From contig JACOXZ010000010.1 of the NCBI GenBank assembly GCA_016182105.1, positions 1 to 62,631 on the forward strand: 62,631 bases of DNA, given 5' to 3'. This DNA comes from Candidatus Liptonbacteria bacterium. GTDB taxonomy: Bacteria > Patescibacteriota > Minisyncoccia > UBA6257 > 2-01-FULL-56-20. The notes under the pieces are model-generated. The model was given only the letters and a program-made list of their open reading frames with translations, had not been told where the DNA came from and did no database searches. The translations under genes were made by a program, and so were the position numbers. Position 1 is the stretch's first letter. Every line of letters begins with the position of its first letter. This document shows, piece by piece, positions 1,773-59,864 of this stretch.

Positions 1773-1863
1773 AGCGGAAAGGGTGGGATTCGAACCCACG
1801 GTACCATTTCTGGTACACAGTCTTTCCAGGACTGCCGTTTAAACCACTCACGCACCTTTCCGC
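1773..1863 (-). tRNA. tRNA-Ser(GGA)
   Basis: Minus-strand GCGGAAAGGTGCGTGAGTGGTTTAAACGGCAGTCCTGGAAAGACTGTGTACCAGAAATGGTACCGTGGGTTCGAATCCCACCCTTTCCGC. It has a 7-bp acceptor stem, anticodon loop CT-GGA-AA, a long variable arm and a GGTTCGAATCC T-loop. CCA is not encoded. Confidence 0.85.
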
Positions 1864-3552: not shown

Positions 3553-4338
3553 TCAAACCTTGCTGTGCTCGGTCTTGTACCACGGCAATCCATCCACCAT
3601 CTCGATGGTATAGTCGCCGAAAAGGTTGGGGTAACGTTTCGTCACGATCTCTCCGACTTTACCGAAGACGAGGCGGATTTCTTCCTCAGCGAATTTGTCT
3701 GTTCTCGCTTCAAGAACCCAGCGAATCGTTCTGGGGTTTGCCGACCAGCCAATCGTGGTCGCAAGGCCATCAGGAGCCAAGCGACGCATTGCCGAAGTGA
3801 TAACCTTCTTCCGGTGCATAGGAACACCGGGGTCGTCGAGCTTAAAATGTTCGGCCAATTCGACCTGAAGCGATTCAAGCTCTCTGAAGGTCTGCGCAAA
3901 AATCTCCACCGCTTCCTCGTCTTCTCGTATGGCTGTCGGCAACCACTGGCCAAGGTCGTCAAGCCGAACAAACCGGAGACTCTCTTGGGAGATAGCGACT
4001 CCGGGGCGGTGGCGCACCAGTTCGTGCGTGAAGACTCGGCTCACATCGGCGAAGATAAAATTAATAACCGGATGTTCGATGACCGAACCGTGCTTCACGT
4101 CAAGGATGTTGCCTATGTACTCCGCGTTCTCCTTGCGTACCTTGAGGACGTTCGGGTTCATCCCCGGTTTCCAACTTCGGTAGCAGAGGCGCCCATACAC
4201 CTCGATGATCCGTTCTATATCGGTTGGAGCGTCAGACTTCCACTCCGGAGCGCCGACGTGGTTCAGGTAGGCCCGAAGGCCTTCTTCAATAATCCTAGTT
4301 TCGCCAATGAGGTATACCTGCGGTTCAACTTTTCTCAC
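3553..4338 (-). CDS. thyX: FAD-dependent thymidylate synthase ThyX
   Basis: 261 aa. HELVRHRPGVAISQESLRFV contains the ThyX RHRxxS...S signature. GTG start preceded by AAAGGAGGAG. Confidence 0.9.
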   Translation of the reverse strand: MRKVEPQVYLIGETRIIEEGLRAYLNHVGAPEWKSDAPTDIERIIEVYGRLCYRSWKPGMNPNVLKVRKENAEYIGNILDVKHGSVIEHPVINFIFADVSRVFTHELVRHRPGVAISQESLRFVRLDDLGQWLPTAIREDEEAVEIFAQTFRELESLQVELAEHFKLDDPGVPMHRKKVITSAMRRLAPDGLATTIGWSANPRTIRWVLEARTDKFAEEEIRLVFGKVGEIVTKRYPNLFGDYTIEMVDGLPWYKTEHSKV

Positions 4339-4379
4339 AACTCCTCCTTTTTTCGATTTTCAAGTGCTTACTAACCCCC

Positions 4380-4448
4380 TCGACAAGCTCGGGGTAAACT
4401 GCCCCTACCCTACACCAAAAACCGTCCTTCGACAAGCTCAGGACAAGC
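4380..4448. repeat. direct repeats of (T)CGACAAGCTC(G/A)GG upstream of thyX
   Basis: CGACAAGCTCGGGG at 4381-4394, CGACAAGCTCAGG at 4430-4442, and a partial GACAAGC at 4442-4448. Confidence 0.7.
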
Positions 4449-4473
4449 CCCTCGTGCAAGGATTTACAAGAAA

Positions 4474-5478
4474 TTAGAAATTTAATTTTTCAATATTTTT
4501 TAATATGAAATCCTTATAGGTTTTAGAATCTTCTAGTTTTACTGAATTATTGACTGATAAATTATGTAGAGAGACTGCCTGAATTGCCGCACTGTATATA
4601 AAATAAAATAATTCGTGGTCTTCATTTAAAGATCCATAATAATCCTTATATCCCTGAATAAAGGCTTTAGAATACTTTTCTCCCATCAAAATAAAAATAT
4701 CTGTAGCTGGTCTATAAATATTTATCCACGGAGAAACAATCATCCAATCTTCTTTTGGGGGATAAATATCCAAAAAAAACATCTTTCTATCTTGATAGAA
4801 AATATTATCGGAATGATTATCTAAAGAAACTACATATTTTGATTTATCGAAATTAAGGAAATACTCTTTTCTTTTTTCTAAATATTCTCGTAAAACTTTG
4901 ATTATTTCGTCTGTCTTTTCTTTCGTAAAATAATCGGGAGCAGAATACATCCAATCTTTTAAATCATCAAATCTTCTTTGGAAAATATCATAATAACTTT
5001 CATGGGTTTTTGGTTGGTGGGAATATAGATCAACGGCTTTTGTTTGCTGGAATCCCATACTTCTAAAATCCATTTCCGTTAATGATTTTTCATGCAAAAG
5101 ATGGCTGAGATTATATTTCAAATCAATCCTCTTCATTTTCATAACAACATCTTCAGCGCTATCAACATTATTGGTAACTACAACCTTACCATCGGCAATA
5201 TTTACCCCATAAACGTTCAAATAAACGTCAGGACTGAAATAATTATTCTCAAAAAAATCTGATTTATAAAAATCTATTCTTGTTTTTCGATCAGCTAAGT
5301 TCCTGAAGTGGTCGTTAAAAAACGCATTATCCCTTTTGCAAATTTTATATACGGTTTTGGGAAATAAAAATATCTGTGAAATTTGAGTTTCTATACGTTT
5401 AGGAATTAACCCTTTTTCTTCAATATTTTCTATCTTACCCTCTAAAAATGAATTGATAATTTTTTTATAATTCTCCAT
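4474..5478 (-). CDS. hypothetical protein, aminoglycoside-phosphotransferase (APH)/kinase-like fold
   Basis: 334 aa and very AT-rich. LDNHSDNIFY resembles the APH catalytic loop (D....NIF) and FFLDIY resembles the following metal-binding D motif. Assignment is tentative. Confidence 0.45.
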   Translation of the reverse strand: MENYKKIINSFLEGKIENIEEKGLIPKRIETQISQIFLFPKTVYKICKRDNAFFNDHFRNLADRKTRIDFYKSDFFENNYFSPDVYLNVYGVNIADGKVVVTNNVDSAEDVVMKMKRIDLKYNLSHLLHEKSLTEMDFRSMGFQQTKAVDLYSHQPKTHESYYDIFQRRFDDLKDWMYSAPDYFTKEKTDEIIKVLREYLEKRKEYFLNFDKSKYVVSLDNHSDNIFYQDRKMFFLDIYPPKEDWMIVSPWINIYRPATDIFILMGEKYSKAFIQGYKDYYGSLNEDHELFYFIYSAAIQAVSLHNLSVNNSVKLEDSKTYKDFILKNIEKLNF

Positions 5479-5483
5479 ATCTA

Positions 5484-6236
5484 CTATTTTTCAACAATAA
5501 ATTTTCTTTTTCCTTTATCGAATATAATATTATCTTTCCGTTCACCACGAAATTCAGCAGAAATTTTCGTTTCCTTACGAACAGAGTCATAGTCGAAAAA
5601 GATACGCATTCCCTCGCCATATCTCATTCCTTGTCCCTCTTCAACCTTATAGCCAAAAATATCCTCCATAACGGGATTTAAAAACTCGAAATGACTAGCT
5701 CCGATAATATGGAGCTTTTTGTTTTCGAGCTTGGCGTGTCGTGCAAGGTAATCAATCGCATTAAAGACACGTCCGGCTCGTTCCCGTACTTCCGGCTGAC
5801 TTTCAAACTTATCGCTTTTTTCTTGAAATCGCGGATCTCGTGCATATGTAACGTCAAATGGACTCTGCTGCGCCTCAAATTCTTTAAAGAGCTCGGTAAA
5901 ATATTCCTTGTCTTTCTGATCGAAATTGCGCATTGAGGAAATAGCTGACTTCTTATGTATATCAATACCTCTCTGATCTAATACCTCCTTCAAAATCTCC
6001 GAGGATCCCTGAGCTCGGCGCGCCGGAGAACTCCATAAAACAACAATCTCTTTTTCGGGATCGATTCCCTCAACAATTTTTTCGGCGCTCTCCCTCACTT
6101 GTTCCTCTCCCTTCTCGGTTAAATCTCTTCCTTCATTCGTGTAAGCAGATTGACCATGACGAAAAAAATCCACGATAACCTCATTGACTTTAGGCTCCGA
6201 CTCCCGACTTTCAGTAAACCATTTTTCTTGTTCCAT
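5484..6236 (-). CDS. histidine phosphatase (phosphoglycerate mutase-like) family protein
   Basis: 250 aa. DFFRHGQSAYT (RHG motif) near the N-terminus and GASHFEF (second His) later. AT-rich like its neighbour. Confidence 0.7.
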   Translation of the reverse strand: MEQEKWFTESRESEPKVNEVIVDFFRHGQSAYTNEGRDLTEKGEEQVRESAEKIVEGIDPEKEIVVLWSSPARRAQGSSEILKEVLDQRGIDIHKKSAISSMRNFDQKDKEYFTELFKEFEAQQSPFDVTYARDPRFQEKSDKFESQPEVRERAGRVFNAIDYLARHAKLENKKLHIIGASHFEFLNPVMEDIFGYKVEEGQGMRYGEGMRIFFDYDSVRKETKISAEFRGERKDNIIFDKGKRKFIVEK

Positions 6237-6317: not shown

Positions 6318-6359
6318 TTACTAAAATTATACTGACGGTCGTCAGTATAATTTTAGTAA
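6318..6359. repeat. perfect 19-bp AT-rich palindrome (4-nt spacer)
   Basis: TTACTAAAATTATACTGAC-GGTC-GTCAGTATAATTTTAGTAA, at the right border of the AT-rich island. Confidence 0.85.
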
Positions 6360-8537: not shown

Positions 8538-8565
8538 ATTTTAGCGGAAACCGCCAGCGTGTCAA
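8538..8565 (-). promoter_or_regulatory. sigma70-type promoter of groES-groEL
   Basis: Minus sense TTGACA-16 nt-TAAAAT, about 60 nt upstream of the groES ATG. No CIRCE inverted repeat seen. Confidence 0.65.
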
Positions 8566-8710
8566 CCCCGTCACCAGATCGAGCCCTGCAACGCCTAAAC
8601 GCTTTCCCTATTTAATCGATTCCTCGCTGAAAATAGTCTATTTTATTGAAAAACTCTATATTTCCTTAGGCGTTGTGGAAAGCGAAGGGCTCGGCTCGGT
8701 GCGGGGTCAA
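8561..8710. repeat. 150-bp inverted-repeat module A (CCCCG...CGGGG termini, TCAA flanks) abutting the groES -35
   Basis: GTCAA-CCCCGTCACC...GGTGCGGGG-TCAA, with inner complementary pairs CGAGCCC/GGGCTCG, ACGCCTAA/TTAGGCGT and CGCTTTCC/GGAAAGCG. Confidence 0.7.
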
Positions 8711-9635
8711 GAGCCCGCCTTATTAATTTCTTCGTAGATATTCAAAACCGCTTTTACGGCATCCCCGGCCGAAATATTGTTCTGCTTGTAGAGCACGTCT
8801 GTTACGTCCCCCACTGCCCAGATGCCGGGCGCGGAGGTTTTCTGTGTTTTGTGGTCCACCACGATTTCGCCGAACTTATTTAGCTCCGCCATTCCCGCGA
8901 GAAAGTCCGTGTTTGGAATAGAGCCGATCTCAACGAAAACGCCTTGGAGATCGAGTGTTTTCTCTTCTCCCGTCTTACGATCTTTATACTTCAGGCCCGT
9001 CACGAACTTATCGCCCACAATTTTTTTCGTCTCGACCATCATCATAATGGTAACCTTGCCGTCCTTCTTCTTGATTGTTTCCTGTGTAATAGGATCGCCG
9101 CGGAGTACGTCTGTATACTCCATAAGATAAATCTTCGAGGCATACGGCAGGAGATCGAGAACGGCCTCAAGACCAGCATTCCCGCCACCCACGACTGCAA
9201 CCACCTTGTCCTTAAAAATCGGCGCGTCGCACGTCGAACAATAAGCGACTCCCCGGCCGTCTCGAGTTCTTTCTCGCCCGGGATGCCGAGCTTGCGCCGA
9301 CGGCTGCCGGTCGTAATTAAAAGATATTTCGTTTCAAAAGTTTTCCCGATTTGAGTTTTCACTTTGAAACCGCTCTGGAACTTTTCGACCGCCGAGACGA
9401 TGTCGCCCTCAATAATTTCAATACCTTCCTGTGCTCGGAGGTGATCCTCAAGCATTTTCGCGAAATCAAAACCGGAGACGGATTTCGTCCCAATCCAGTT
9501 TTGGATATCGGCGGAAACCAGGGACTGTCCGCCCCACTCTTCGGTTATGAGCAATGTTTTTATTTTCTTTCTGGCCCCGTAGACTCCCGCCGCTACTCCA
9601 CCCGGACCGCCTCCTATGATAATAAGGTCGTACAT
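8707..9635 (-). pseudogene. trxB: thioredoxin-disulfide reductase (TrxB) interrupted by a 1-nt frameshift near 9253-9263
   Basis: The N-terminal ORF (MYDLIIIGGGPGGVAAGVY...GIPGEKELE) and the C-terminal frame (GRGVAYCSTCDAPIFKDKVVAVVGGGNAGLEA...) are contiguous only after a -1 shift just upstream of the CSTC redox motif. Confidence 0.8.
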
Positions 9636-9656
9636 GGTTTAAAGGTGAGACTAGGT

Positions 9657-9743
9657 TTATTGCGGGAGTTGTACGGGGCGGGCCGCATAGACGCCGGCAG
9701 CCACGCCGCCGGGACCGCCGCCAACAATCACTAAATCATACAT
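9657..9743 (-). pseudogene. decayed duplicate of the trxB 5' end
   Basis: Minus-strand ATGTATGATTTAGTG... = MYDLVIVGGGPGGVAAGVYAARPVQLPQ*, versus trxB MYDLIIIGGGPGGVAAGVYGARKK. Confidence 0.6.
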
Positions 9744-9749
9744 ATTAAA

Positions 9750-9812
9750 TTATTGAGGTTGGCGAGCCTCGCCTCTGGCGGGCCGCCGATTATTTATTAT
9801 TAGATCATACAT
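9750..9812 (-). pseudogene. second, more degraded trxB 5' remnant
   Basis: ATGTATGATCTAATAATA... = MYDLIINNRRPARGEARQPQ*. It begins 6 nt after the glutaredoxin stop. Confidence 0.4.
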
Positions 9813-9817
9813 TCCGT

Positions 9818-10246: not shown

Positions 10247-10274
10247 ATTTTATTGAAGATATTTCTTTCGTCAA
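10247..10274 (-). promoter_or_regulatory. sigma70-type promoter, probably giving a leaderless SPW-grx-trxB transcript
   Basis: Minus sense TTGACG-16 nt-TAAAAT, then only 6 nt (TAATTT) before the ATG at 10240. Confidence 0.6.
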
Positions 10275-10420
10275 CCCCGTCACCTTAGAAAGATTTCGTT
10301 TTTCAAAACGCTTTTTGCCAAAACACGGTTTCTACTTTTTAAAAATCTGATTTGCGAATGAAGAACGTCCTCTCAAGAAAAACGGCTGGCGCTCACATCT
10401 TTCTAAGGTGCGGGGTCAAC
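10270..10420. repeat. 151-bp inverted-repeat module B abutting the -35 of the SPW/grx/trxB promoter
   Basis: GTCAA-CCCCGTCACCTTAGAAAGAT...ATCTTTCTAAGGTGCGGGG-TCAAC. The arms are 19-20 bp with one bulged T. Confidence 0.75.
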
Positions 10421-10459
10421 AAAAAAATCCCCCCCGATCACGGTCGGGGGGGATTTTTT
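10421..10459. terminator. bidirectional rho-independent terminator
   Basis: AAAAAAA-TCCCCCCGA-TCACGG-TCGGGGGGA-TTTTTT. Confidence 0.75.
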
Positions 10460-11470: not shown

Positions 11471-11498
11471 ACTCTAGCATATAAAATTCTTGGGTCAA
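11471..11498 (-). promoter_or_regulatory. sigma70-type promoter of the dsbA-like gene
   Basis: Minus sense TTGACC-16 nt-TAGAGT, 12 nt before the ATG. Confidence 0.5.
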
Positions 11499-11641
11499 CC
11501 CCCACACTAATAGTGGTTTGCGAAGCTAACTGCATTCCATGGTTAAATTCAAACAACCTGATTTTTCCCGAAAAACCTTGTTGCTTAGGCCTAACTCTGG
11601 CTTCGTCTAGAATGCCTAACCACTATTAGTGTGGGGGTCAA
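11494..11641. repeat. 148-bp inverted-repeat module C abutting the dsbA-like -35
   Basis: GTCAA-CCCCCACACTAATAGTGGTT...AACCACTATTAGTGTGGGGG-TCAA, with perfect 20-bp arms. Confidence 0.8.
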
Positions 11642-21730: not shown

Positions 21731-22741
21731 TCACGGCCTCAAGTTCACAACTTTTTTAGATTTAGAAGACTCGTAAATCGCCTCAATAATTTTATTTGCC
21801 GCAAGACCGTCATTGGCGTCGCCGATAATTTTTTCTTTGCCGCTTACCGCTCCCAGAAAATTTCTCCACTCATCTTCCCAACTTGAGTCTTTTAGGAATT
21901 CCAGAGTCTCTATGTCCGGAACCCCGAACTCTGGCTTTCTCTTTCCTATGGTTAAAGTCTCTGGGCCGTAACTCTTTCCTAGACCTTGAACGGCCAAAAA
22001 TCCCTTATCCCCAAAAGCTTCAAAAGAAAAAATGTTCTTCCAGTTGGTGGTACTCACATGAAAAGAAGCAGTAGTGTTTTTGTTTCTCAAAATTACAAAA
22101 GCGTTGTCTTCAAGATCGGTGTTCCAAAATTTCGTTTCGGCAATGCCATAAACCTCATCAAATTCACCAGCGAACCAGCGGCACAAATCGATGAGATGAA
22201 CTCCTTGATCCAAAAGCTCTCCGCCTCCGGAGATGTCTTTATTGAAACGCCACTCTTTTTCCATTCCAAGCCGTCCGCCGTGACCGTAGCGCCCGCGAAT
22301 AAAAAGAATCTTCCCGATAAGCCCTTCGTCAAAAAGTTGTTTCGCCTTAAAGATCGCCGGGTGGAACCGATGATTGAACCCGACTTTGACGATACGTCCG
22401 CTCCCTTCCGCCGCGTGATAAAGCTTCTCGGCTTCTTGGGCATTTTTCCCGAATGGCTTCTCCGCAAGAATATGCTTTCCGTTTTCAAGCGCCTTTAGGG
22501 CAATGGGCAGAAGAAATTTATTTGGAACGGCAATGATTACGATATCTATATCCTTCGAAGCGACGAGGTCTTCCCATCTCTCAAAAATTTGAGAGTGGTG
22601 ATCCTTGGAAAACTCCAGGGCTTTTTTCCTATCAATATCGCTTACAGCGACTAAAACTGCGCCTCCCACGTTCTCTATCACCTCAGCCCGCTTCCCGCCA
22701 ATAAGACCGGCTCCGACAATGCCAACGCGGATAGTTCTCAT
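21731..22741 (-). CDS. Gfo/Idh/MocA-family NAD(P) oxidoreductase
   Basis: IRVGIVGAGLIGGKRAE...ILAEKPF. Confidence 0.85.
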   Translation of the reverse strand: MRTIRVGIVGAGLIGGKRAEVIENVGGAVLVAVSDIDRKKALEFSKDHHSQIFERWEDLVASKDIDIVIIAVPNKFLLPIALKALENGKHILAEKPFGKNAQEAEKLYHAAEGSGRIVKVGFNHRFHPAIFKAKQLFDEGLIGKILFIRGRYGHGGRLGMEKEWRFNKDISGGGELLDQGVHLIDLCRWFAGEFDEVYGIAETKFWNTDLEDNAFVILRNKNTTASFHVSTTNWKNIFSFEAFGDKGFLAVQGLGKSYGPETLTIGKRKPEFGVPDIETLEFLKDSSWEDEWRNFLGAVSGKEKIIGDANDGLAANKIIEAIYESSKSKKVVNLRP

Positions 22742-22853
22742 CCCGTTAGAAGCAGATCGCGATCTAGGCGAATCTGCAGATTTATTTTATCGTAATGACT
22801 ATACATTGATTGATATTCAGAGTTTTTGCAACGAGATCGCGGCTTCTAACGGG
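22742..22853. repeat. stop/start-bridging inverted-repeat element, copy 1 (112 bp)
   Basis: CCCGTTAGAAGCAGATCGCGATC...GATCGCGGCTTCTAACGGG. It fills the whole gap between the stop at 22856-22858 and the start at 22741. Confidence 0.85.
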
Positions 22854-22855
22854 AC

Positions 22856-35152: not shown

Positions 35153-35280
35153 CCCCGTAGGAAATTAAATATTTTCCGTTAGCGTCTGACGACCTTGTAG
35201 TGTGTTTGGGGAATGATTTCATATTTGTTGATTTTAGCTTTAGCTCGAAAATATTTATTTTCTCGCTATTTCCTACGGGG
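35153..35280. repeat. stop/start-bridging inverted-repeat element, copy 4 (variant termini)
   Basis: CCCCGTAGGAAAT...ATTTCCTACGGGG (13-bp arms). The upstream stop TAG lies inside the arm and the downstream ATG is 1 nt outside. Confidence 0.8.
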
Positions 35281-43979: not shown

Positions 43980-44006
43980 TGCGCCGCTAACGCGCGCGAA
44001 GCTTTA

Positions 44007-44278
44007 GAACCCATCTCAAAAATCCCTTCGGCCGCGATATAGGCAAATCTTTCGCGGCGCAAGAAGCAAGGACGAAGGTGTATCCTATGATACTCCGAGT
44101 CCGAAGCGACGTGGTGCCGCGAAAGATTGGCCATATCCCCAGGGGGTTGCGGAGATTTTCTTCTCCCACTACGTTGCGGCTTCGTCGGAGTGGCACAAGC
44201 CACACATTCCTCGCCGCGCCTTGCGTAGAGAAGAAAATCTCTCGCAACGCGGCTAGAAGGGATTTTTGAGATGGGTTC
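44007..44278. mobile_element. E1: 272-bp structured (MITE-like) element bounded by terminal inverted repeats
   Basis: Perfect 22-bp terminal inverted repeats GAACCCATCTCAAAAATCCCTT / AAGGGATTTTTGAGATGGGTTC. Internal 14+5 bp helix GTTGC-g-GAGATTTTCTTCTC / GAGAAGAAAATCTC-tc-GCAAC. Homologous to E2 in reverse orientation. Confidence 0.75.
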
Positions 44279-45215
44279 GAATAAAAGTTTTCAATCTTTT
44301 ATAGATAATCCATACGCCCCAGACGACCGGATAAATACCGTATTTCTTCGCGAAATAAATATCCATAATCTTTCTGTATTTTCTGCGCTTCCACGGAGTT
44401 TTGTTGATGTAGTAAACATATTCCGGCTGATAGGGAAGCGCTGAGAGAAAATACCACGGTTTTCCGCCGCCCGCGAAGTGGACAACGAGCGGATCGGGTT
44501 CGTTGTAGGGATATGCCCCTATGGGTATCGCGGCGGCTATGAGATTGTATTTTATGCCAAGCTCTCTGTAGTCGCCCGCAAACACAAGGTTAAGAGCGTC
44601 TTGCTCGTGATATCGCAACTTGTCCGGATACTCATAGATCAACCTGTGAAGTTTTTCTTCTATGCCGCGCTTTCTCCAAAGCTCCAAATCAACAAGAAGC
44701 ATTCCGACACTGAAATACGCGGACTCTTGCGACGCAATGGGCCAATTGATGTCTTTGCGCAGCTTTTTCAAATGCCCCTGTCTTTCTTCTTGCTGACAAT
44801 CCGCGATTGCTCCTATTGTTTTCCTGCCCAGGTCCACGTTAAATAGTTCGGAAATATCCCCTCGAATCACCACGTCAACTTCAAGATTGATTACCCTGCG
44901 ACATGTAGGGGGAAGAAAACGCCCCAAATAAACGCGGTGAAAGGCCTCTACTGGAGCGTGAAATCCCTTAGACAAATCACCAAGCGGCAGTCCTTGGTAA
45001 AGCTTTTTATCAGGAAGAACATAGTTTATCGTAAATCCATATTTCTTCTCCAGAGTCTCCAATCGCTCTTTATTTTTTGCTGATATTCCAAAATCTACGA
45101 CGTAAAGGCTTATCGGGTAATCCCCTTTTTTGTTTTCGAAAAGAGAACACAAGGCAACCCCAAGGAGCATGGCGTAATTATCATTCGTGGCAAAAACAAC
45201 AGATACTTTTTCCAT
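44253..45215 (-). CDS. glycosyltransferase family 8
   Basis: VSVVFATNDNYAMLLGVALCSLFENK...NLEVDVVIRGD. Start taken at MEKVS. The last 8 codons (RTHLKNPF*) lie in the E1 terminal repeat. Confidence 0.85.
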   Translation of the reverse strand: MEKVSVVFATNDNYAMLLGVALCSLFENKKGDYPISLYVVDFGISAKNKERLETLEKKYGFTINYVLPDKKLYQGLPLGDLSKGFHAPVEAFHRVYLGRFLPPTCRRVINLEVDVVIRGDISELFNVDLGRKTIGAIADCQQEERQGHLKKLRKDINWPIASQESAYFSVGMLLVDLELWRKRGIEEKLHRLIYEYPDKLRYHEQDALNLVFAGDYRELGIKYNLIAAAIPIGAYPYNEPDPLVVHFAGGGKPWYFLSALPYQPEYVYYINKTPWKRRKYRKIMDIYFAKKYGIYPVVWGVWIIYKRLKTFIRTHLKNPF

Positions 45216-45237: not shown

Positions 45238-46098
45238 CTACACCTTATACCAGACAAACAAACGGAGAAGTGCCACTAGATTCCAAAATATAAGTTTAAT
45301 TCTGTCCCACATCTTTAAAGATTTTAAGCGCAATATAAAGATCATATTCGGGAAGTAAAGCGGTGAAAAAAACAACACAAACCTGACTTTGATATTGGAT
45401 AATACGCGTTTAATTCGCATAGACACACGTGGATTGGGATCAAGAACAAAAATTTTGGTGCGCTTATAAAAAAGAATTTCGTCGACGAGGGTAAAATGTC
45501 CCCTGACCAAACAGCGAAAAAGGAAGTCATACTCAAGAAATGGCTTGTCAATAAATTTACAATCAACAATTTTCTCGCGCCTCCAAACTCCATACGTCAT
45601 GTTGCCCTTTCCCCCAAGAATTGTAAGCAGAATAAATTCCTTGAGGCGTCCGTACAGATCCTTCTTAAACGTGAAAAATAATTTCGGATCTTCTTTTTGT
45701 GTCCTGCCTAAATCGTCGAAATGCATGAGTTTAGATATGGCAGCAATCGCTTCCTTGTCCGCATCCAAGGCGGCTATACATCTTTCCACGAAAGTCGGCG
45801 CCCGCTTATCATCGTCCGAAGCCCATATAAAATACTCACCTCTGGCATTTTTTTTGAGATATTCGAAGTTTCTGGCGTGGCCTATATTCGATCTCTGCCG
45901 TATATATTTTATACGTCGGTCCTTTTTCGCGTATTCCTCGCAGATCCGCGGAGTGTCGTCGGTAGAGGCGTTATCGGATATAACCAGCTCAAAATTTCTA
46001 TACGTCTGCGCAAGCAGCGAATCCAATGCCTCGCGCAAATAAGATTGCCCGTTATGCGTAGCTAAGCCGATGCTTACCAATTTTTCTTTAGAACCCAT
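45238..46098 (-). CDS. glycosyltransferase family 2
   Basis: MGSKEKLVSIGLATHNGQSYLREALDSLLAQTYRNFELVISDNASTDDT. The start ATG at 46098 and the GGAGG RBS lie inside the E2 terminal repeat. The track ORF extension to 46242 is read-through into E2. Confidence 0.85.
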   Translation of the reverse strand: MGSKEKLVSIGLATHNGQSYLREALDSLLAQTYRNFELVISDNASTDDTPRICEEYAKKDRRIKYIRQRSNIGHARNFEYLKKNARGEYFIWASDDDKRAPTFVERCIAALDADKEAIAAISKLMHFDDLGRTQKEDPKLFFTFKKDLYGRLKEFILLTILGGKGNMTYGVWRREKIVDCKFIDKPFLEYDFLFRCLVRGHFTLVDEILFYKRTKIFVLDPNPRVSMRIKRVLSNIKVRFVLFFSPLYFPNMIFILRLKSLKMWDRIKLIFWNLVALLRLFVWYKV

Positions 46099-46366
46099 CT
46101 TAATAATACCTCCAGCCCGCGTTGCTGGCGATTTTCTCGTATCCGCAAGGCTTGTCGAGTGAGCTGTGCTTGATGCACTGCGATCGAGGCGTAACGCAGC
46201 GGGACGGGAAAATCGCCGCAACCCCAAGGGGGATATGGCCAATTTCCGCAGTACCGGCGTCGCTTCCTCCTCGGAGTACCACAGGAGGGTACACTTTCGT
46301 CGTCGTTCCTTGGTCTTGCAGAAATTGGCTCATATCGCGAGCGGAGATATTATTAAGATGGGTTCT
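46091..46366. mobile_element. E2: 276-bp structured (MITE-like) element bounded by terminal inverted repeats, inverted relative to E1
   Basis: Terminal repeats GAACCCATCTTAATAATACCTCC / GGAGATATTATTAAGATGGGTTC (1 mismatch). Internal helix GTTGC-t-GGCGATTTTC / GAAAATCGCC-GCAAC. The core GGGGATATGGCCAAT is the reverse complement of the E1 ATTGGCCATATCCCC. Confidence 0.75.
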
Positions 46367-55997: not shown

Positions 55998-56936
55998 TTA
56001 TTGAGACGAAAGTTCGCGCACAATGCTTTTATAGTCAATGTCCATTGCGTCTGAAACAGGATTCAGCCAGTTATCTCCAAGCTTACGTTTTATGAAAATA
56101 TCTTTTTTAAGACTGATGCCGCGCGCGGCTGCGAGCAAAGAAAAACAGGATAAATTCTCGCTTTTGCTGTCGTCGAACACGACTAGCTTTCCTGTTTTGC
56201 GTACGCTCCTCAAAATCGGCTCCCAGTCAATAGGAGTCATATAGCTTACATTAAAAACCGCGGGTTTCAAGCCGGTTTGTTCCATTTCGAGGCCGAGCTG
56301 CCAGCCGTACGGGAAGGAAAAATTAAAAGTGACGATCGTCGCATCGCTACCGTCCCTATACTGCACGAACTTCATATCCTTGTCCGCAAGGATCGGCTCT
56401 CCGGGATCGATAATATCGTCTTTATACATCCTCTGACTGAAACTTATAATGCGGAATCCGGGTCTGCCAAAATGGATGTCGATGATTTTCTCTGTGTCAT
56501 ACTTATTGGTAACCGCGTAGCCATCAATCCTCGCCATAGAACAAAAATCCGCGAAGTTATTGGAACTCGACTGTGGCCCTTCATATCCCATATCAACCGT
56601 GACTGGCAATATCGTGAATGAGCCCTTAGCGTGCTTGCTATTTCTTATGATGTTATAGGTGTTAACCAGCTGATCAATGCCCAAGAAAAGAAAATCAAGT
56701 TGTTTCATGAAGAATGCCGCCTTCCCGCCGCCAAGCATCACGCCGAACCCAAACCCGACAAGCGAATTCTCGGTGTTTGTCGTATTGATGATCATGCCCG
56801 TCTCTTTTACCGCAAATCCTTTCGTAAAACCGCTGATACGGGAGCCGGCGCTAACGTTCTGACCATAAACCACGAGTCCGTCGTGCGAACTGACCGCATT
56901 ACGCAGAACCGCGTTGACGTGTTCAAGATATTTCAT
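55998..56936 (-). CDS. divergent E1 beta-like (transketolase C-terminal-like) subunit
   Basis: 312 aa. NTTNTENSLVGFGFGVMLGGGK, in the position of the E1-beta EagfvG motif. Follows an E1-alpha-like gene. Confidence 0.65.
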   Translation of the reverse strand: MKYLEHVNAVLRNAVSSHDGLVVYGQNVSAGSRISGFTKGFAVKETGMIINTTNTENSLVGFGFGVMLGGGKAAFFMKQLDFLFLGIDQLVNTYNIIRNSKHAKGSFTILPVTVDMGYEGPQSSSNNFADFCSMARIDGYAVTNKYDTEKIIDIHFGRPGFRIISFSQRMYKDDIIDPGEPILADKDMKFVQYRDGSDATIVTFNFSFPYGWQLGLEMEQTGLKPAVFNVSYMTPIDWEPILRSVRKTGKLVVFDDSKSENLSCFSLLAAARGISLKKDIFIKRKLGDNWLNPVSDAMDIDYKSIVRELSSQ

Positions 56937-57034
56937 CCCGTTAGAAAATTAACAAACATAGTTTTATTGTTGGATTAATTTGCTGATTAAGTGTTTTCTT
57001 GTGGTAATTCATATCTCTTTAATTTTCTAACGGG
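56937..57034. repeat. stop/start-bridging inverted-repeat element, copy 2 (98 bp)
   Basis: CCCGTTAGAAAATT...AATTTTCTAACGGG (14-bp arms), between the stop at 57037-57039 and the start at 56936. Confidence 0.85.
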
Positions 57035-57036
57035 AT

Positions 57037-57964: not shown

Positions 57965-58864
57965 TTAAGATCCGAGCGTGCTTGTATAGGGATCGATGGT
58001 CTTTATGCCTTCTTTAAAACCGATCTCTGGTTTCCATCCTAAAAGCTCCTTTGCTTTTTTATTGGAAGGGTTGCGCATATTCGCATCGTGAGGATTCGAT
58101 TCTATAACCTTCACTTTTTTATGAAACAGCTTCTCGCTTTCACTTACAACATCCCCCATCGTTATCATCTCATCGCCTGAAAGATTGAATATCTGAAAAT
58201 CGTTCCTGCCAAAAGCCAGACGGATGCCTCGAGCAATATCTACGACGTGTACAAAGCGGCGGCCTGACTTACGGGAACGCATAAGCGTCACGGTGTCATT
58301 GCGCTTTACGTCATCCGCGACAGATTCCACGGCACACCAATCATCTTTGCGGGGCCCGTAGACAATAGCAAAACGTAAAATAGTTACCGGGATGAATCCA
58401 CGCTTATATTGCTCGCGAAGGTTCGCTTCGCTCACGAGCTTTGAAAGCGCATATTCGGAGGTGTGGCCTGTGATATCAATGAACGAATCTTCATCTTTTT
58501 CTTCATCACCCACGAATTTCTCATATACCCATTCGCTTGAAGGAAATATGAGTTGTTTCGCTTTTTTCGCCTGGGCTATGCGCATCACATTCAGGAGCCC
58601 CATAACATTCGTCGCGAAACATTCATACGGCTTGCCGGCGCACTGGCTGTCGCGCGAAAGTGCGGCAAGATGCACAATCGCGTCTGCATCTTCTGGAAAA
58701 CTATCGGCAATTGCAGAATCTCTGACGTCACCGATCTTAAACCCGTAAGAAAGTTCATTCTTCTTAAGAAGATCGAAGCCAATAACTTCAATGCCCTCCC
58801 TCAAACATTGTCTAACTAGCTCTGTTCCTATGAAACCCTCAGATCCGGTTACGATGATTTTCAT
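57965..58864 (-). CDS. NAD-dependent epimerase/dehydratase
   Basis: MKIIVTGSEGFIGTELV...YALSK. Confidence 0.85.
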   Translation of the reverse strand: MKIIVTGSEGFIGTELVRQCLREGIEVIGFDLLKKNELSYGFKIGDVRDSAIADSFPEDADAIVHLAALSRDSQCAGKPYECFATNVMGLLNVMRIAQAKKAKQLIFPSSEWVYEKFVGDEEKDEDSFIDITGHTSEYALSKLVSEANLREQYKRGFIPVTILRFAIVYGPRKDDWCAVESVADDVKRNDTVTLMRSRKSGRRFVHVVDIARGIRLAFGRNDFQIFNLSGDEMITMGDVVSESEKLFHKKVKVIESNPHDANMRNPSNKKAKELLGWKPEIGFKEGIKTIDPYTSTLGS

Positions 58865-58984
58865 CCCGTTAGAAGCAGATCGCGATCAACACGATTCTGC
58901 AAGGTTATTTTATGGCAACGATTATGCATCGGGTAAAATTATAGTTTTAACAATTTTAACAAAGCGATCGCGGCTTCTAACGGG
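58865..58984. repeat. stop/start-bridging inverted-repeat element, copy 3 (120 bp)
   Basis: Its termini are identical to copy 1 (23 nt on the left, 20 nt on the right). The upstream ORF stops at the TAG inside the arm (58977-58979). Confidence 0.85.
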
Positions 58985-59864
58985 ATTCATAGTCACGAAT
59001 TGTTTTTTTAATTCCTGTTTTTATATCAACCAGCGGACGCCAGCCGAGATCTCTACGTATATTTTTGAGCCCCGCATAGGCTGCATTCTGAAGTTTCCCG
59101 CGCGATGTACGGAAAAATGCGTTGTAATATTCCCTACTCGCTCCCATTTCTTTGCAGACCATCTCTGCGATGTCTCGCACAGGCGTGAGGTGGCCCGAGC
59201 CCAGGTTGTAAGTCGCACGACCCTTCCCACGCAGGGCGGCATCTGCAAACGCCCGCGCCACATCCGACACATATATGAAATCACCCTGTGCGAGCGGATA
59301 CTTGAGCCGAAGCGGAACATTTCCTAGAACGGTGCGCATTATGTATGGTATAAGTGAGCCGGTCCTTTGTCCATATCCATAAGGGTTGAAGGGACGCAGC
59401 CAGATAAAATCCATATTTCTTTCCTTCGCAAGCTCCTCTCCCATAAGATGAAGGGCGTGTTTCGCTGCTGTAAACGCAGTCACTGGCGTAATGCTCATTT
59501 CCTCGTTAAGCTTGCCGATGCTCTTCCCGTATTCAAAAGAGCTTCCAGCCGCAACTATTTTCTTACAGCCGATATCTGCAAGAGCGGAAAAAATATTAAG
59601 ACTTCCCTCAAGGTTTTTCACGCTTTGTGCGTATGAAAAATCGGGAATGCCTTCCCAGGCGAGATGAACCGCAACGTGAGGCTTGAATTTTTTAAGCCGC
59701 CCTTTCCATTTCGCGATGTCAGAAAGATCGCCTTTTATAAAATCGATGCCGCGCTCCTGATGGTTTTTGCGGGAGAGCACAAGCAGACGATGCCCCCGTT
59801 TTTTAAGTTCTTGAATCGTGTAACGGCCTATAAAACCAGTGCCTCCAGTCACGAATACCCTCAT
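58977..59864 (-). CDS. NAD-dependent epimerase/dehydratase
   Basis: MRVFVTGGTGFIGRYTI... Confidence 0.85.
   Translation of the reverse strand: MRVFVTGGTGFIGRYTIQELKKRGHRLLVLSRKNHQERGIDFIKGDLSDIAKWKGRLKKFKPHVAVHLAWEGIPDFSYAQSVKNLEGSLNIFSALADIGCKKIVAAGSSFEYGKSIGKLNEEMSITPVTAFTAAKHALHLMGEELAKERNMDFIWLRPFNPYGYGQRTGSLIPYIMRTVLGNVPLRLKYPLAQGDFIYVSDVARAFADAALRGKGRATYNLGSGHLTPVRDIAEMVCKEMGASREYYNAFFRTSRGKLQNAAYAGLKNIRRDLGWRPLVDIKTGIKKTIRDYESR

Follow-up and report, generated by a model that had tools for sequence, protein, structure and literature searches.

Probable non-autonomous, MITE-like elements at start codons and promoter -35 boxes in a Patescibacteria genome fragment

The window analysed here is a stretch of 62,631 nucleotides (nt) from a Candidatus Liptonbacteria bacterium (assembly GCA_016182105.1, contig JACOXZ010000010.1), and the subject of this work is a set of seven short elements in it, designated A, B, C and J1 to J4, which are located at promoters and gene junctions. 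The source of the window is a metagenome-assembled genome of Patescibacteria/Paceibacterota; its GroEL displayed 94% identity to proteins encoded on groundwater contigs and about 73-82% to proteins of Colwellbacteria, Liptonbacteria and Paceibacterota. Elements A, B and C were found within a redox and chaperone region with the order DsbA-like, Zn-ribbon, SPW, glutaredoxin, TrxB and GroES/EL, and J1-J4 within a 40-kb polysaccharide-synthesis cluster on the minus strand, each exactly between the stop codon of one gene and the ATG of the next. The Pfam domains of the window genes start at residues 1-6. An earlier note, made from the sequence alone, had proposed that the seven elements form one superfamily of insertions with 4-bp target duplications. 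Coordinates of elements and repeats are given on the plus strand; the genes alongside are on the minus strand.

Element A (8566-8706, minus strand, 141 nt; minus-strand ends CCCCGCACCGAGCCGAGCCC...GGGCTCGATCTGGTGACGGGG) lies between the trxB stop and the groES promoter and is flanked by the target site duplication (TSD) TCAA at 8562-8565 and 8707-8710. Element B (10275-10415, minus strand, 141 nt; TSD TCAA at 10271-10274 and 10416-10419; minus-strand ends CCCCGCACCTTAGAAAGAT...ATCTTTCTAAGGTGACGGGG) reads TCAA-CCCCGTCACCTTAGAAAGAT...ATCTTTCTAAGGTGCGGGG-TCAA on the plus strand, thus occupying the 10270-10420 region named in the earlier note, and has an intrinsic terminator (10422-10459) on one side and, on the other, the promoter of a gene for a small SPW-family membrane protein. 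Element C (11499-11637, minus strand, 139 nt; TSD TCAA at 11495-11498 and 11638-11641; ends CCCCCACACTAATAGTGGTT...AACCACTATTAGTGTGGGGG) separates divergent sugar-transferase and DsbA-like genes. In the three best promoter-like sites between 8400 and 11800, the -35 hexamer starts at the base adjoining A, B and C, respectively. The groES site (8538-8565, minus strand; TTGACA-16-TAAAAT, 11/12 matches) opens its -35 with the proximal TSD copy TTGA and is kept in the relative L121; the SPW-gene site (10247-10274, minus strand; TTGACG-16-TAAAAT, ATG 6 nt on) also opens its -35 with the TSD, and its transcript is probably leaderless; the site of the DsbA-like gene (11471-11498, minus strand; TTGACC-16-TAGAGT, with TG before the -10) is kept in relatives without element C. 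The -10 hexamer TAAAAT (10247-10252 and 8538-8543) occurred in loci L193 and L139 as well; in several cases an ATG came only 6-7 nt after it, a spacing that suggests leaderless mRNAs in this lineage.

Among the junction elements, J1 (22741-22854, minus strand, 114 nt; TSD CTCA on the plus strand, TGAG on the minus strand; ends TCCCGTTAGAAGCCGCGATC...GATCGCGATCTGCTTCTAACGGGA) lies between the stop of an SDR gene and the start of a GFO/IDH/MocA oxidoreductase gene, whose start codon is made of the terminal A of the element plus TG. J2 (35153-35280, minus strand, 128 nt; TSD CATA, TATG on the minus strand; ends CCCCGTAGGAAAT...ATTTCCTACGGGG) separates E1alpha and E1beta genes; here the start codon is carried by the TSD TATG, and the upstream gene now stops at a TAG within the left terminus. 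No second copy of the J2 terminus type appeared among the fetched loci. J3 (56936-57035, minus strand, 100 nt; TSD TTCA, TGAA on the minus strand; ends TCCCGTTAGAAAATTAA...TTAATTTTCTAACGGGA) lies within a second E1alpha/E1beta pair; an identical occupied copy was found in Logan SRR12113430, the sole result of an exact look-up of the E1beta protein, and the exact-protein look-up of GroES gave no match. J4 (58864-58985, minus strand, 122 nt; TSD TTCA, TGAA on the minus strand) belongs to the J1 subfamily and lies between two NAD-dependent epimerase genes.

All seven elements presented inverted termini of the form (T/C)CCCG...CGGG(A/G), with arms of 13-21 nt, in agreement with the earlier note, whose quoted left ends were right; a TTAGAA motif was common to B, J1, J3 and J4, the earlier note having placed TTAGAAA just inside the terminus of B and the junction copies. 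A perfect 4-nt direct repeat flanked each of the seven, with the 4-mers already given there (on the minus, or gene, strand: TTGA three times, TGAG, TATG, and TGAA twice); the chance of such a match is 1/256 per element. Every element folded into a long end-to-end hairpin. The interiors were unrelated between groups: only J1 and J4 could be aligned inside (77-82% identity), and A and B had nothing but their termini in common (the first 9-10 nt). Coding content was restricted to short open reading frames (ORFs) of up to about 40 codons, with no transposase gene inside elements of 100-141 nt.

Orthologous loci, obtained through close homologues of E1beta and DsbA, provided clean empty sites with a single copy of the 4-mer for four elements (B, C, J3 and J4). 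The J3 site was empty in L126 (...AAAGAAATAGCATGAAATATCTGG vs. ...AAAGAAATAGCATGAA (100 nt) TGAAATATCTTG in the window) and in L128, the site in these two loci reading ...AAATAGCATGAAATATCTGG..., and the J4 site was empty in L126 (...GACTATGAAAATAATAG vs. ...GACTATGAA (122 nt) TGAAAATCATCG). The B site was empty in L129 (...ATTTTTGTTGACTAGAG...TAAAAT...ATG vs. ...TTTTTTTGTTGA (141 nt) TTGACGAAAG...TAAAAT), and the C site in L129 and L130 (CTCTTGACCC...TATATGCTAGAGT vs. GCTTGA (139 nt) TTGACCCAAG...TATATGCTAGAGT). Only the element was missing from the empty sites, and no adjacent gene. This showed that insertion of the elements is precise and that close relatives differ in having or lacking them; the earlier note had held that copies fixed across relatives, with no empty sites, would speak against mobility, and such sites do exist for B, C, J3 and J4. 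The pre-insertion sites corresponded, as it had predicted, to a conserved -35 TTGAC or to an ATGA stop/start overlap. At the J4 site, L123-125 carried an element of another subfamily (TCCCGTTAGAG...) with the same TGAA repeat and L128 a third, degenerate element, so that three different elements occupied the site in three lineages while it was empty in a fourth, which points to a hot spot that has been hit repeatedly.

For element A, L121 keeps the groES promoter without the element, but its upstream DNA is rearranged and the comparison is therefore not a clean empty site. In this relative (the one with the 94% identical GroEL) the trxB-groES spacer (1272-1966) holds, in place of element A, an extra 93-amino acid (aa) ORF on the minus strand, together with a roughly 50-nt tandem repeat at about 1370-1470. 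In the window, the trxB region (8707-9817, minus strand) contains a 2-nt insertion (GA) with respect to L121 that breaks trxB into the frames 9042..9635 and 8707..9204, so that the split marks a pseudogene or, alternatively, an error of the assembly. The spacer from the glutaredoxin stop to the trxB ATG is longer by 177 nt, which contain two partial duplicates of the trxB 5' end (ATGTATGAT...), one of them followed by CCCCGTACAAC..., which may be the scar of element activity at that start codon.

The distribution of the junction family was assessed by scanning GTDB species-representative genomes for the exact 22-base terminus pair TCCCGTTAGAA-N(75-105)-TTCTAACGGGA. At least 119 genome stretches matched, against a chance expectation of about 2 according to our own estimate, and nearly all of them were from Patescibacteria, or the Candidate Phyla Radiation (CPR): Saccharibacteria, many Parcubacteria/Paceibacterota groups, Levyibacteria, Doudnabacteria, Kerfeldbacteria and Kazan; a few matched bins were labelled Omnitrophota, Planctomycetes or Gammaproteobacteria. 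Among the matches listed, the family stood at start codons in about a hundred other CPR genomes. The same pattern gave no match in 2.9 million viral contigs, so that carriage by phages was not supported. Copies outside the window were 83-131 nt long, and their outer 11 nt were identical in 130 copies. In 116 of these 130 listed copies, the ATG formed by the terminal A plus TG opened an ORF of at least 60 codons, in contrast with 0.37% of positions, and these 116 copies, set in the direction of the adjoining gene, are referred to as oriented copies. A perfect 4-nt flanking repeat was present in 78 of the 116 (mean 28.8 and maximum 40 with shuffled pairing), so that the duplication, whose lack in other copies the earlier note would have taken as refutation, does extend beyond the window. 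The repeats comprised TGAA (45), TGAG (12), TGGA (11) and others, and the base before the left copy was A in 76 of the 78. Reconstruction of the target gave A-T-G-R-R, surrounded by sequence that is otherwise rich in AT, with Shine-Dalgarno-like 4-mers in just 10 of the 78 cases. An ATGA overlap occurred in only 16 of the 116 oriented copies, the junction target being a start codon within ATGRR and not ATGA as such. The upstream gene ended at the left-terminus TAG, as in J2, in 12 of the 116. When the scan was run without the T...A requirement, 9 of 12 copies followed the same pattern, and copies ending in G make GTG. These results showed that the junction family lands at A/TGRR start codons, where the duplicated TGRR and the terminal A rebuild an ATG before the gene.

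Locus L087 contained four near-identical copies at four start codons within 5 kb. In L011 (7673-7895) and L091 (6503-6720), two different elements were arranged in tandem at one start codon with only the shared 4-nt repeat between them, which is the pattern expected if a regenerated ATGAA was struck a second time.

A metagenome scan for the termini of A and B gave 122 matches, of which 21 were true members of the family as judged by inner-arm complementarity and 101 were GC-rich chance matches. The flanks of the 21 members were T-initial, AT-rich 4-mers; about nine members were located on the TTGA that opens a TTGAC-type hexamer, and several of these, together with one TTGCAT case, had a -10-like hexamer 16-18 nt downstream. 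Two further A/B copies lay just upstream of the extended -10 (TGCTAAAAT) of apparently leaderless genes, and one at a start codon. Copies occurred in both orientations relative to the promoter, as expected if no RNA-level constraint acts upstream of the transcription start. Termini near-identical to those of B were found in Hainich groundwater contigs (L139, L147 and L206), A-type copies were present in metagenomes, and the C terminus type appeared in L014, L018, L083 and L198. All these data together showed that the families with CACC or CACAC ends often land on the TTGA of a -35 TTGAC, which is kept intact beside its -10. One A/B copy (L204, about 2091-2231) was flanked by inverted GGTCAA/TTGACC, with no direct repeat, and had a good TTGACC-17-TATACT/TATTAT promoter facing outwards on each side.

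The termini of the different groups formed a graded series (TCCCG-TTAGAA, TCCCGCACCTTTAGAG, CCCCGCACCTTAGAAAG, CCCCGCACCGAGCC and CCCCCACAC), and therefore do align, a point on which the earlier note had made its superfamily depend. The L087 copies (TCCCGCACCTTTAGAG...CTCTAAAAGTGCGGGA, TSD TGAG or TGAA, at start codons) join the CACC terminus of A and B to the target and the TTAGA motif of the junction family, and copies of the CCCCCACAC type, similar to C, occupied start codons as well as TAAA or TTAT sites in other loci. Judging from these sequence features, the shared size, 4-bp duplication and termini and the existence of intermediates support a single superfamily, and that part of the proposal held. 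In L143, a 153-aa gene is bracketed by two direct copies (1150-1225 and 1845-1914) of a compact nested hairpin of about 75 nt (outer stem CCCGTCACTAAAGAAGTAG...CTACTTCTTTTAGTGCGGG, inner stem TCCCCCACATAATATTTATGTGGGGGA), which may belong to the same superfamily as a composite or a nested form.

The start-codon copies displayed signals at the level of translation. Although the outer termini were symmetric, the interiors were oriented with the gene (once the terminal inverted repeats were trimmed, interiors matched in the same direction in 55 cases vs. 6 in the opposite one). An ATG-initiated ORF of at least 15 codons with its stop within -10 to +1 of the gene ATG was present in 67 of the 116 copies (58%), in contrast with 20 of 116 when the interior was reverse-complemented and 23 of 116 when it was shuffled (17-20%). 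This terminal ORF stopped either at the right-terminus TAA, which precedes the ATG by 4 nt, or in an ATGA overlap. The frame from the first, native ATG ran through the element in 28 of 84 copies vs. 9 of 232 control frames, and in-frame read-through into the gene was seen in one case only (L118). In the window, the internal ORFs of J1 (MYSHYDKINLQIRLDRDLLLTG, then stop) and J4 (MHNRCHKITLQNRVDRDLLLTG, then stop) ended on the ATGA, that of J1 at the gene start; the terminal ORFs of J1, J3 and J4 all ended on an ATGA or at the TAA, and the J2 frame stopped 14 nt past the gene ATG. In the largest subfamily, the outer helix was followed by a bulge of 4 nt (ATCT/ACCT/TCCT) in the gene-proximal arm, then by an inner helix in which compensatory changes occurred (CGCGATC/GATCGCG, CGCGGTC/GACCGCG and CACGATC/GATCGTG) and by an AT-rich core. 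Folding energies were nearly the same on both strands (sense -35.5 and antisense -34.5 kcal/mol), with similar numbers of G-U pairs, which suggests that the palindrome is a DNA-level feature rather than a strand-specific RNA structure. A constraint on reading-frame class was only weakly borne out by element lengths (50, 35 and 31 copies for L mod 3). On these counts, the data suggest translational coupling across the insert by termination-reinitiation, which would account for continued translation of a gene that has been separated from its upstream context and for the survival of a single orientation.

We therefore consider it very probable that the seven elements are non-autonomous, MITE-like (miniature inverted-repeat transposable element) DNA transposons of one superfamily widespread in Patescibacteria/CPR, with the following model of insertion and survival. 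A transposase acting in trans would move the elements through a 4-nt staggered cut of the target, probably with a preference for T-initial, AT-rich 4-mers; a piggyBac/IS1380-like DDE enzyme is a candidate, and a lead only. Insertions elsewhere in these compact genomes would be lost by selection. Start-codon copies would be tolerated because their interior, in fixed orientation, carries a short reading frame ending at TAA-CGGG-ATG or on ATGA, so that ribosomes would pass through the hairpin, unwinding it, and start again at the gene by termination-reinitiation coupling. Promoter copies, lying upstream of the transcription start, would be free of such a constraint and accepted in both orientations. 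The earlier note had ascribed the observed sites to the survival of those insertions that regenerate a promoter or a start codon; the signals are indeed regenerated, but survival selection alone does not account for a start-codon occupancy of 89%, and an intrinsic target preference is also needed. A bolder version, which we hold to be less likely than not, would be a CPR-wide superfamily whose integration machinery reads ATG and TTGAC punctuation, with a start-codon branch in which a relay frame hands ribosomes over to the host gene.

Several observations weigh against this model. No autonomous partner or transposase was present in the window, where no sizeable ORF contained a transposase domain (Pfam/NCBIfam), in keeping with the earlier note; 1.7 Mb of related loci yielded no long element bounded by these termini, the hits for unpaired termini and for termini 220-4000 nt apart all being either two separate copies or chance matches rich in GC; and no recurrent transposase-like neighbour emerged from the clusters of 449 ORFs (at least 250 aa, from loci with GC below 0.52, judged on representative sequences without a Pfam scan). 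Moreover, 38 of the 116 oriented copies had no perfect 4-nt repeat, and repeat-less copies ending in ...CGGGA/TG at the gene start hint at selection for the junction or at decay of the left copy. Some A/B-family flanks matched over 5-6 nt, so the length of the duplication may vary. The T...A termini used in the genome scan bias the first base of a possible 5-nt duplication. The outer 11 nt, identical over phylum-level lineages while the interiors diverge, could also reflect a host function, and the model of coupling through an upstream ORF rests on statistics, with 42% of the copies having no such ORF. As regards the enzyme, the terminus of element B (...TTAGAAAGAT) resembles what we take to be the canonical piggyBac end, CCCTAGAAAGATA. 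Variants of piggyBac with TCAA, TATG and TAAA duplications have been described, with IS1380 as a prokaryotic outgroup (PMC10813416). Given that the targets found here are not TTAA and that no enzyme of this type was found, piggyBac/IS1380 stays a lead.

The host function just mentioned deserves consideration on its own, since the elements might be mobile elements that the host has kept as modular regulators of translation initiation, sites of RNA processing or stability inside operons, or insulators placed upstream of promoters, with the conserved termini bound by a host protein and not by a transposase alone. The identity of the outer 11 nt over many CPR lineages in spite of divergent interiors would fit with this, as would the strong orientation bias of the interiors with their enriched terminal ORFs, the conserved ATCT/ACCT/TCCT bulge on the gene-proximal arm with the compensatory changes in the inner helix, and the ...CGGGA/TG that some repeat-less copies still keep at the gene start. 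However, orthologous genes in close relatives function without the element, one and the same site holds different subfamilies, there is no association with a class of genes (neighbours range from sugar-nucleotide enzymes to housekeeping genes), and the removal of harmful insertions by selection would produce the orientation bias and the terminal ORFs just as well; we thus regard a host role of this kind as unlikely. Movement of REPIN-like hairpins as single-stranded DNA by a single-copy HUH enzyme (RAYT or IS200/IS605-like) instead of a DDE transposase seems much less probable still. Mobility of the IS200/IS605 and REP/RAYT types is not known to make target duplications, whereas perfect 4-nt duplications flanked 7/7 elements of the window and 78/116 of the other copies and the empty sites held one copy; nor was there a conserved GTAG-like 5' tetranucleotide. 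Long near-perfect hairpins whose bulge tells the arms apart, compensatory changes that preserve arm complementarity, and the lack of a linked transposase or autonomous element in the loci examined, despite wide distribution and low copy number, are the features that such an enzyme would explain.

Vertically inherited cis-regulatory RNA structures, or attC-like recombination sites, with the flanking repeats as part of the motif, have some resemblances in their favour: the positions at gene boundaries inside a variable polysaccharide-synthesis cluster, the size of 100-141 nt and the bulged bases, like those of integron attC sites, and the superficial similarity of GTTAGAA/TTCTAAC to attC core sites. 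The flanking 4-mers, in contrast, differ by locus (TGAA, TGAG, TGGA, TTGA, TATG and TAAA) and the empty site retains exactly one of them, while the element alone, and not an adjacent gene, is missing. The GTT...AAC order is the reverse of the RYYYAAC...GTTRRRY of attC, folding lacks strand asymmetry, the interiors are not conserved, and no element matched Rfam 15 at E values up to 5 (tRNA-Ser being the only hit at the gathering threshold). Both the attC-like and the regulatory-RNA readings were rejected in view of the empty sites, and we give them hardly any credence.

CPR/Patescibacteria have small, densely packed genomes that are considered to contain little mobile DNA. The non-autonomous transposons proposed here would be abundant, cross-lineage mini-transposons living at gene boundaries, the sole places such genomes can spare, and targeting and regenerating start codons and -35 boxes would make them a clear case of a transposon adapted to go unnoticed by gene expression. 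If the bolder version is true, they could spread at almost no cost through the operons of extremely compact genomes and could be co-opted as portable translation-initiation or regulatory modules; if the relay frame works as proposed, it would be a compact natural device coupling translation across a strong hairpin. In practical terms, the elements show where the true start codons and promoters lie in organisms for which hardly any experiments exist; they also make surface-polysaccharide clusters variable at particular hot spots and point to a transposase that would mobilise them. They could also mislead gene callers, as upstream genes can end inside an element (J2); some orthologues appear 5-6 residues longer.

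Other features of the window were recorded. A GC-rich element of 278 nt occurs in two copies, identical at roughly half of their positions, at gene junctions of the glycosyltransferase cluster (44004-44281 and 46090-46366); the copies have inverted ends of 24-26 nt (GAACCCATCT...AGATGGGTTC) followed by TAAAG and overlap small ORFs without family matches, show neither a flanking repeat nor an Rfam match, and may represent either another type of insertion or a structured RNA. The tRNA-Ser(GGA) gene (1774-1861, minus strand) lies inside a 20-nt inverted repeat (1763-1874) that reaches 12-13 nt past both tRNA ends and terminates in TCCCGC...GCGGGA, like the element termini. A perfect palindrome of 20+20 nt (TTACTAAAATTATACTGACG / CGTCAGTATAATTTTAGTAA) is present at 6318-6359, upstream of the groEL region. 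The stretch 4001-6000, with a low GC of 0.37 where its surroundings have about 0.46-0.50, may be foreign DNA; the 334-aa ORF that it contains (4474..5478) matched neither Pfam nor NCBIfam.

When compared with known systems, the elements fit the definition of a MITE (inverted terminal repeats, duplication of fixed length, small size without transposase, and empty sites, all present here) in every feature tested, a known autonomous parent excepted. They resemble bacterial MITEs and the Correia/NEMIS elements of Neisseria in their length of about 100-150 bp, the lack of transposase coding, the terminal inverted repeats and short duplication, the dispersed copies next to genes and the insertion polymorphism between strains. 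In Correia elements, too, expression signals can arise where terminus and target meet; the elements described here rebuild the signal that they split, their target is not TA but ATGRR starts or the TTGA of a -35, with a 4-bp duplication, and they occur in many CPR lineages, not in one genus, with no known parent insertion sequence. With piggyBac/IS1380 they share the 4-bp target duplication, their termini starting with (C/T)CCC, whereas their targets are ATGRR, TTGA, TAAA, TTTA and TATG instead of TTAA, and no DDD/DDE or other transposase was found with these termini in the window, the 1.7 Mb of loci or the neighbouring ORFs. REP/REPIN-RAYT systems are similar as short extragenic palindromes with long hairpins and modest copy number, with no transposase inside or beside the copies, but REPINs are not known to leave a duplication or to be associated with start codons or -35 boxes, in contrast with the clean, locus-varying 4-nt duplications and matching empty sites found here. 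Rickettsia palindromic elements (RPEs) are likewise mobile palindromes of about 100-150 bp in small compact genomes, surviving where gene function is spared; most of them, however, are in-frame gene inserts that end up in the encoded protein, whereas the present elements lie immediately upstream of the ATG and have a defined target motif. Integron attC sites have the opposite core order (GTTAGAA...TTCTAAC here), and no cassette-wise loss of genes was seen at the empty sites. A search of the openly accessible literature, by sequence and by topic, gave no description of these elements (subscription literature lay outside its scope). They differ, therefore, from MITEs, REPINs, RPEs, Correia elements and attC sites in their targets, in the regeneration of split signals and in their distribution over many CPR lineages, and we read them as a variant of MITE that is new in its targets and in the regeneration of the signals into which it inserts.

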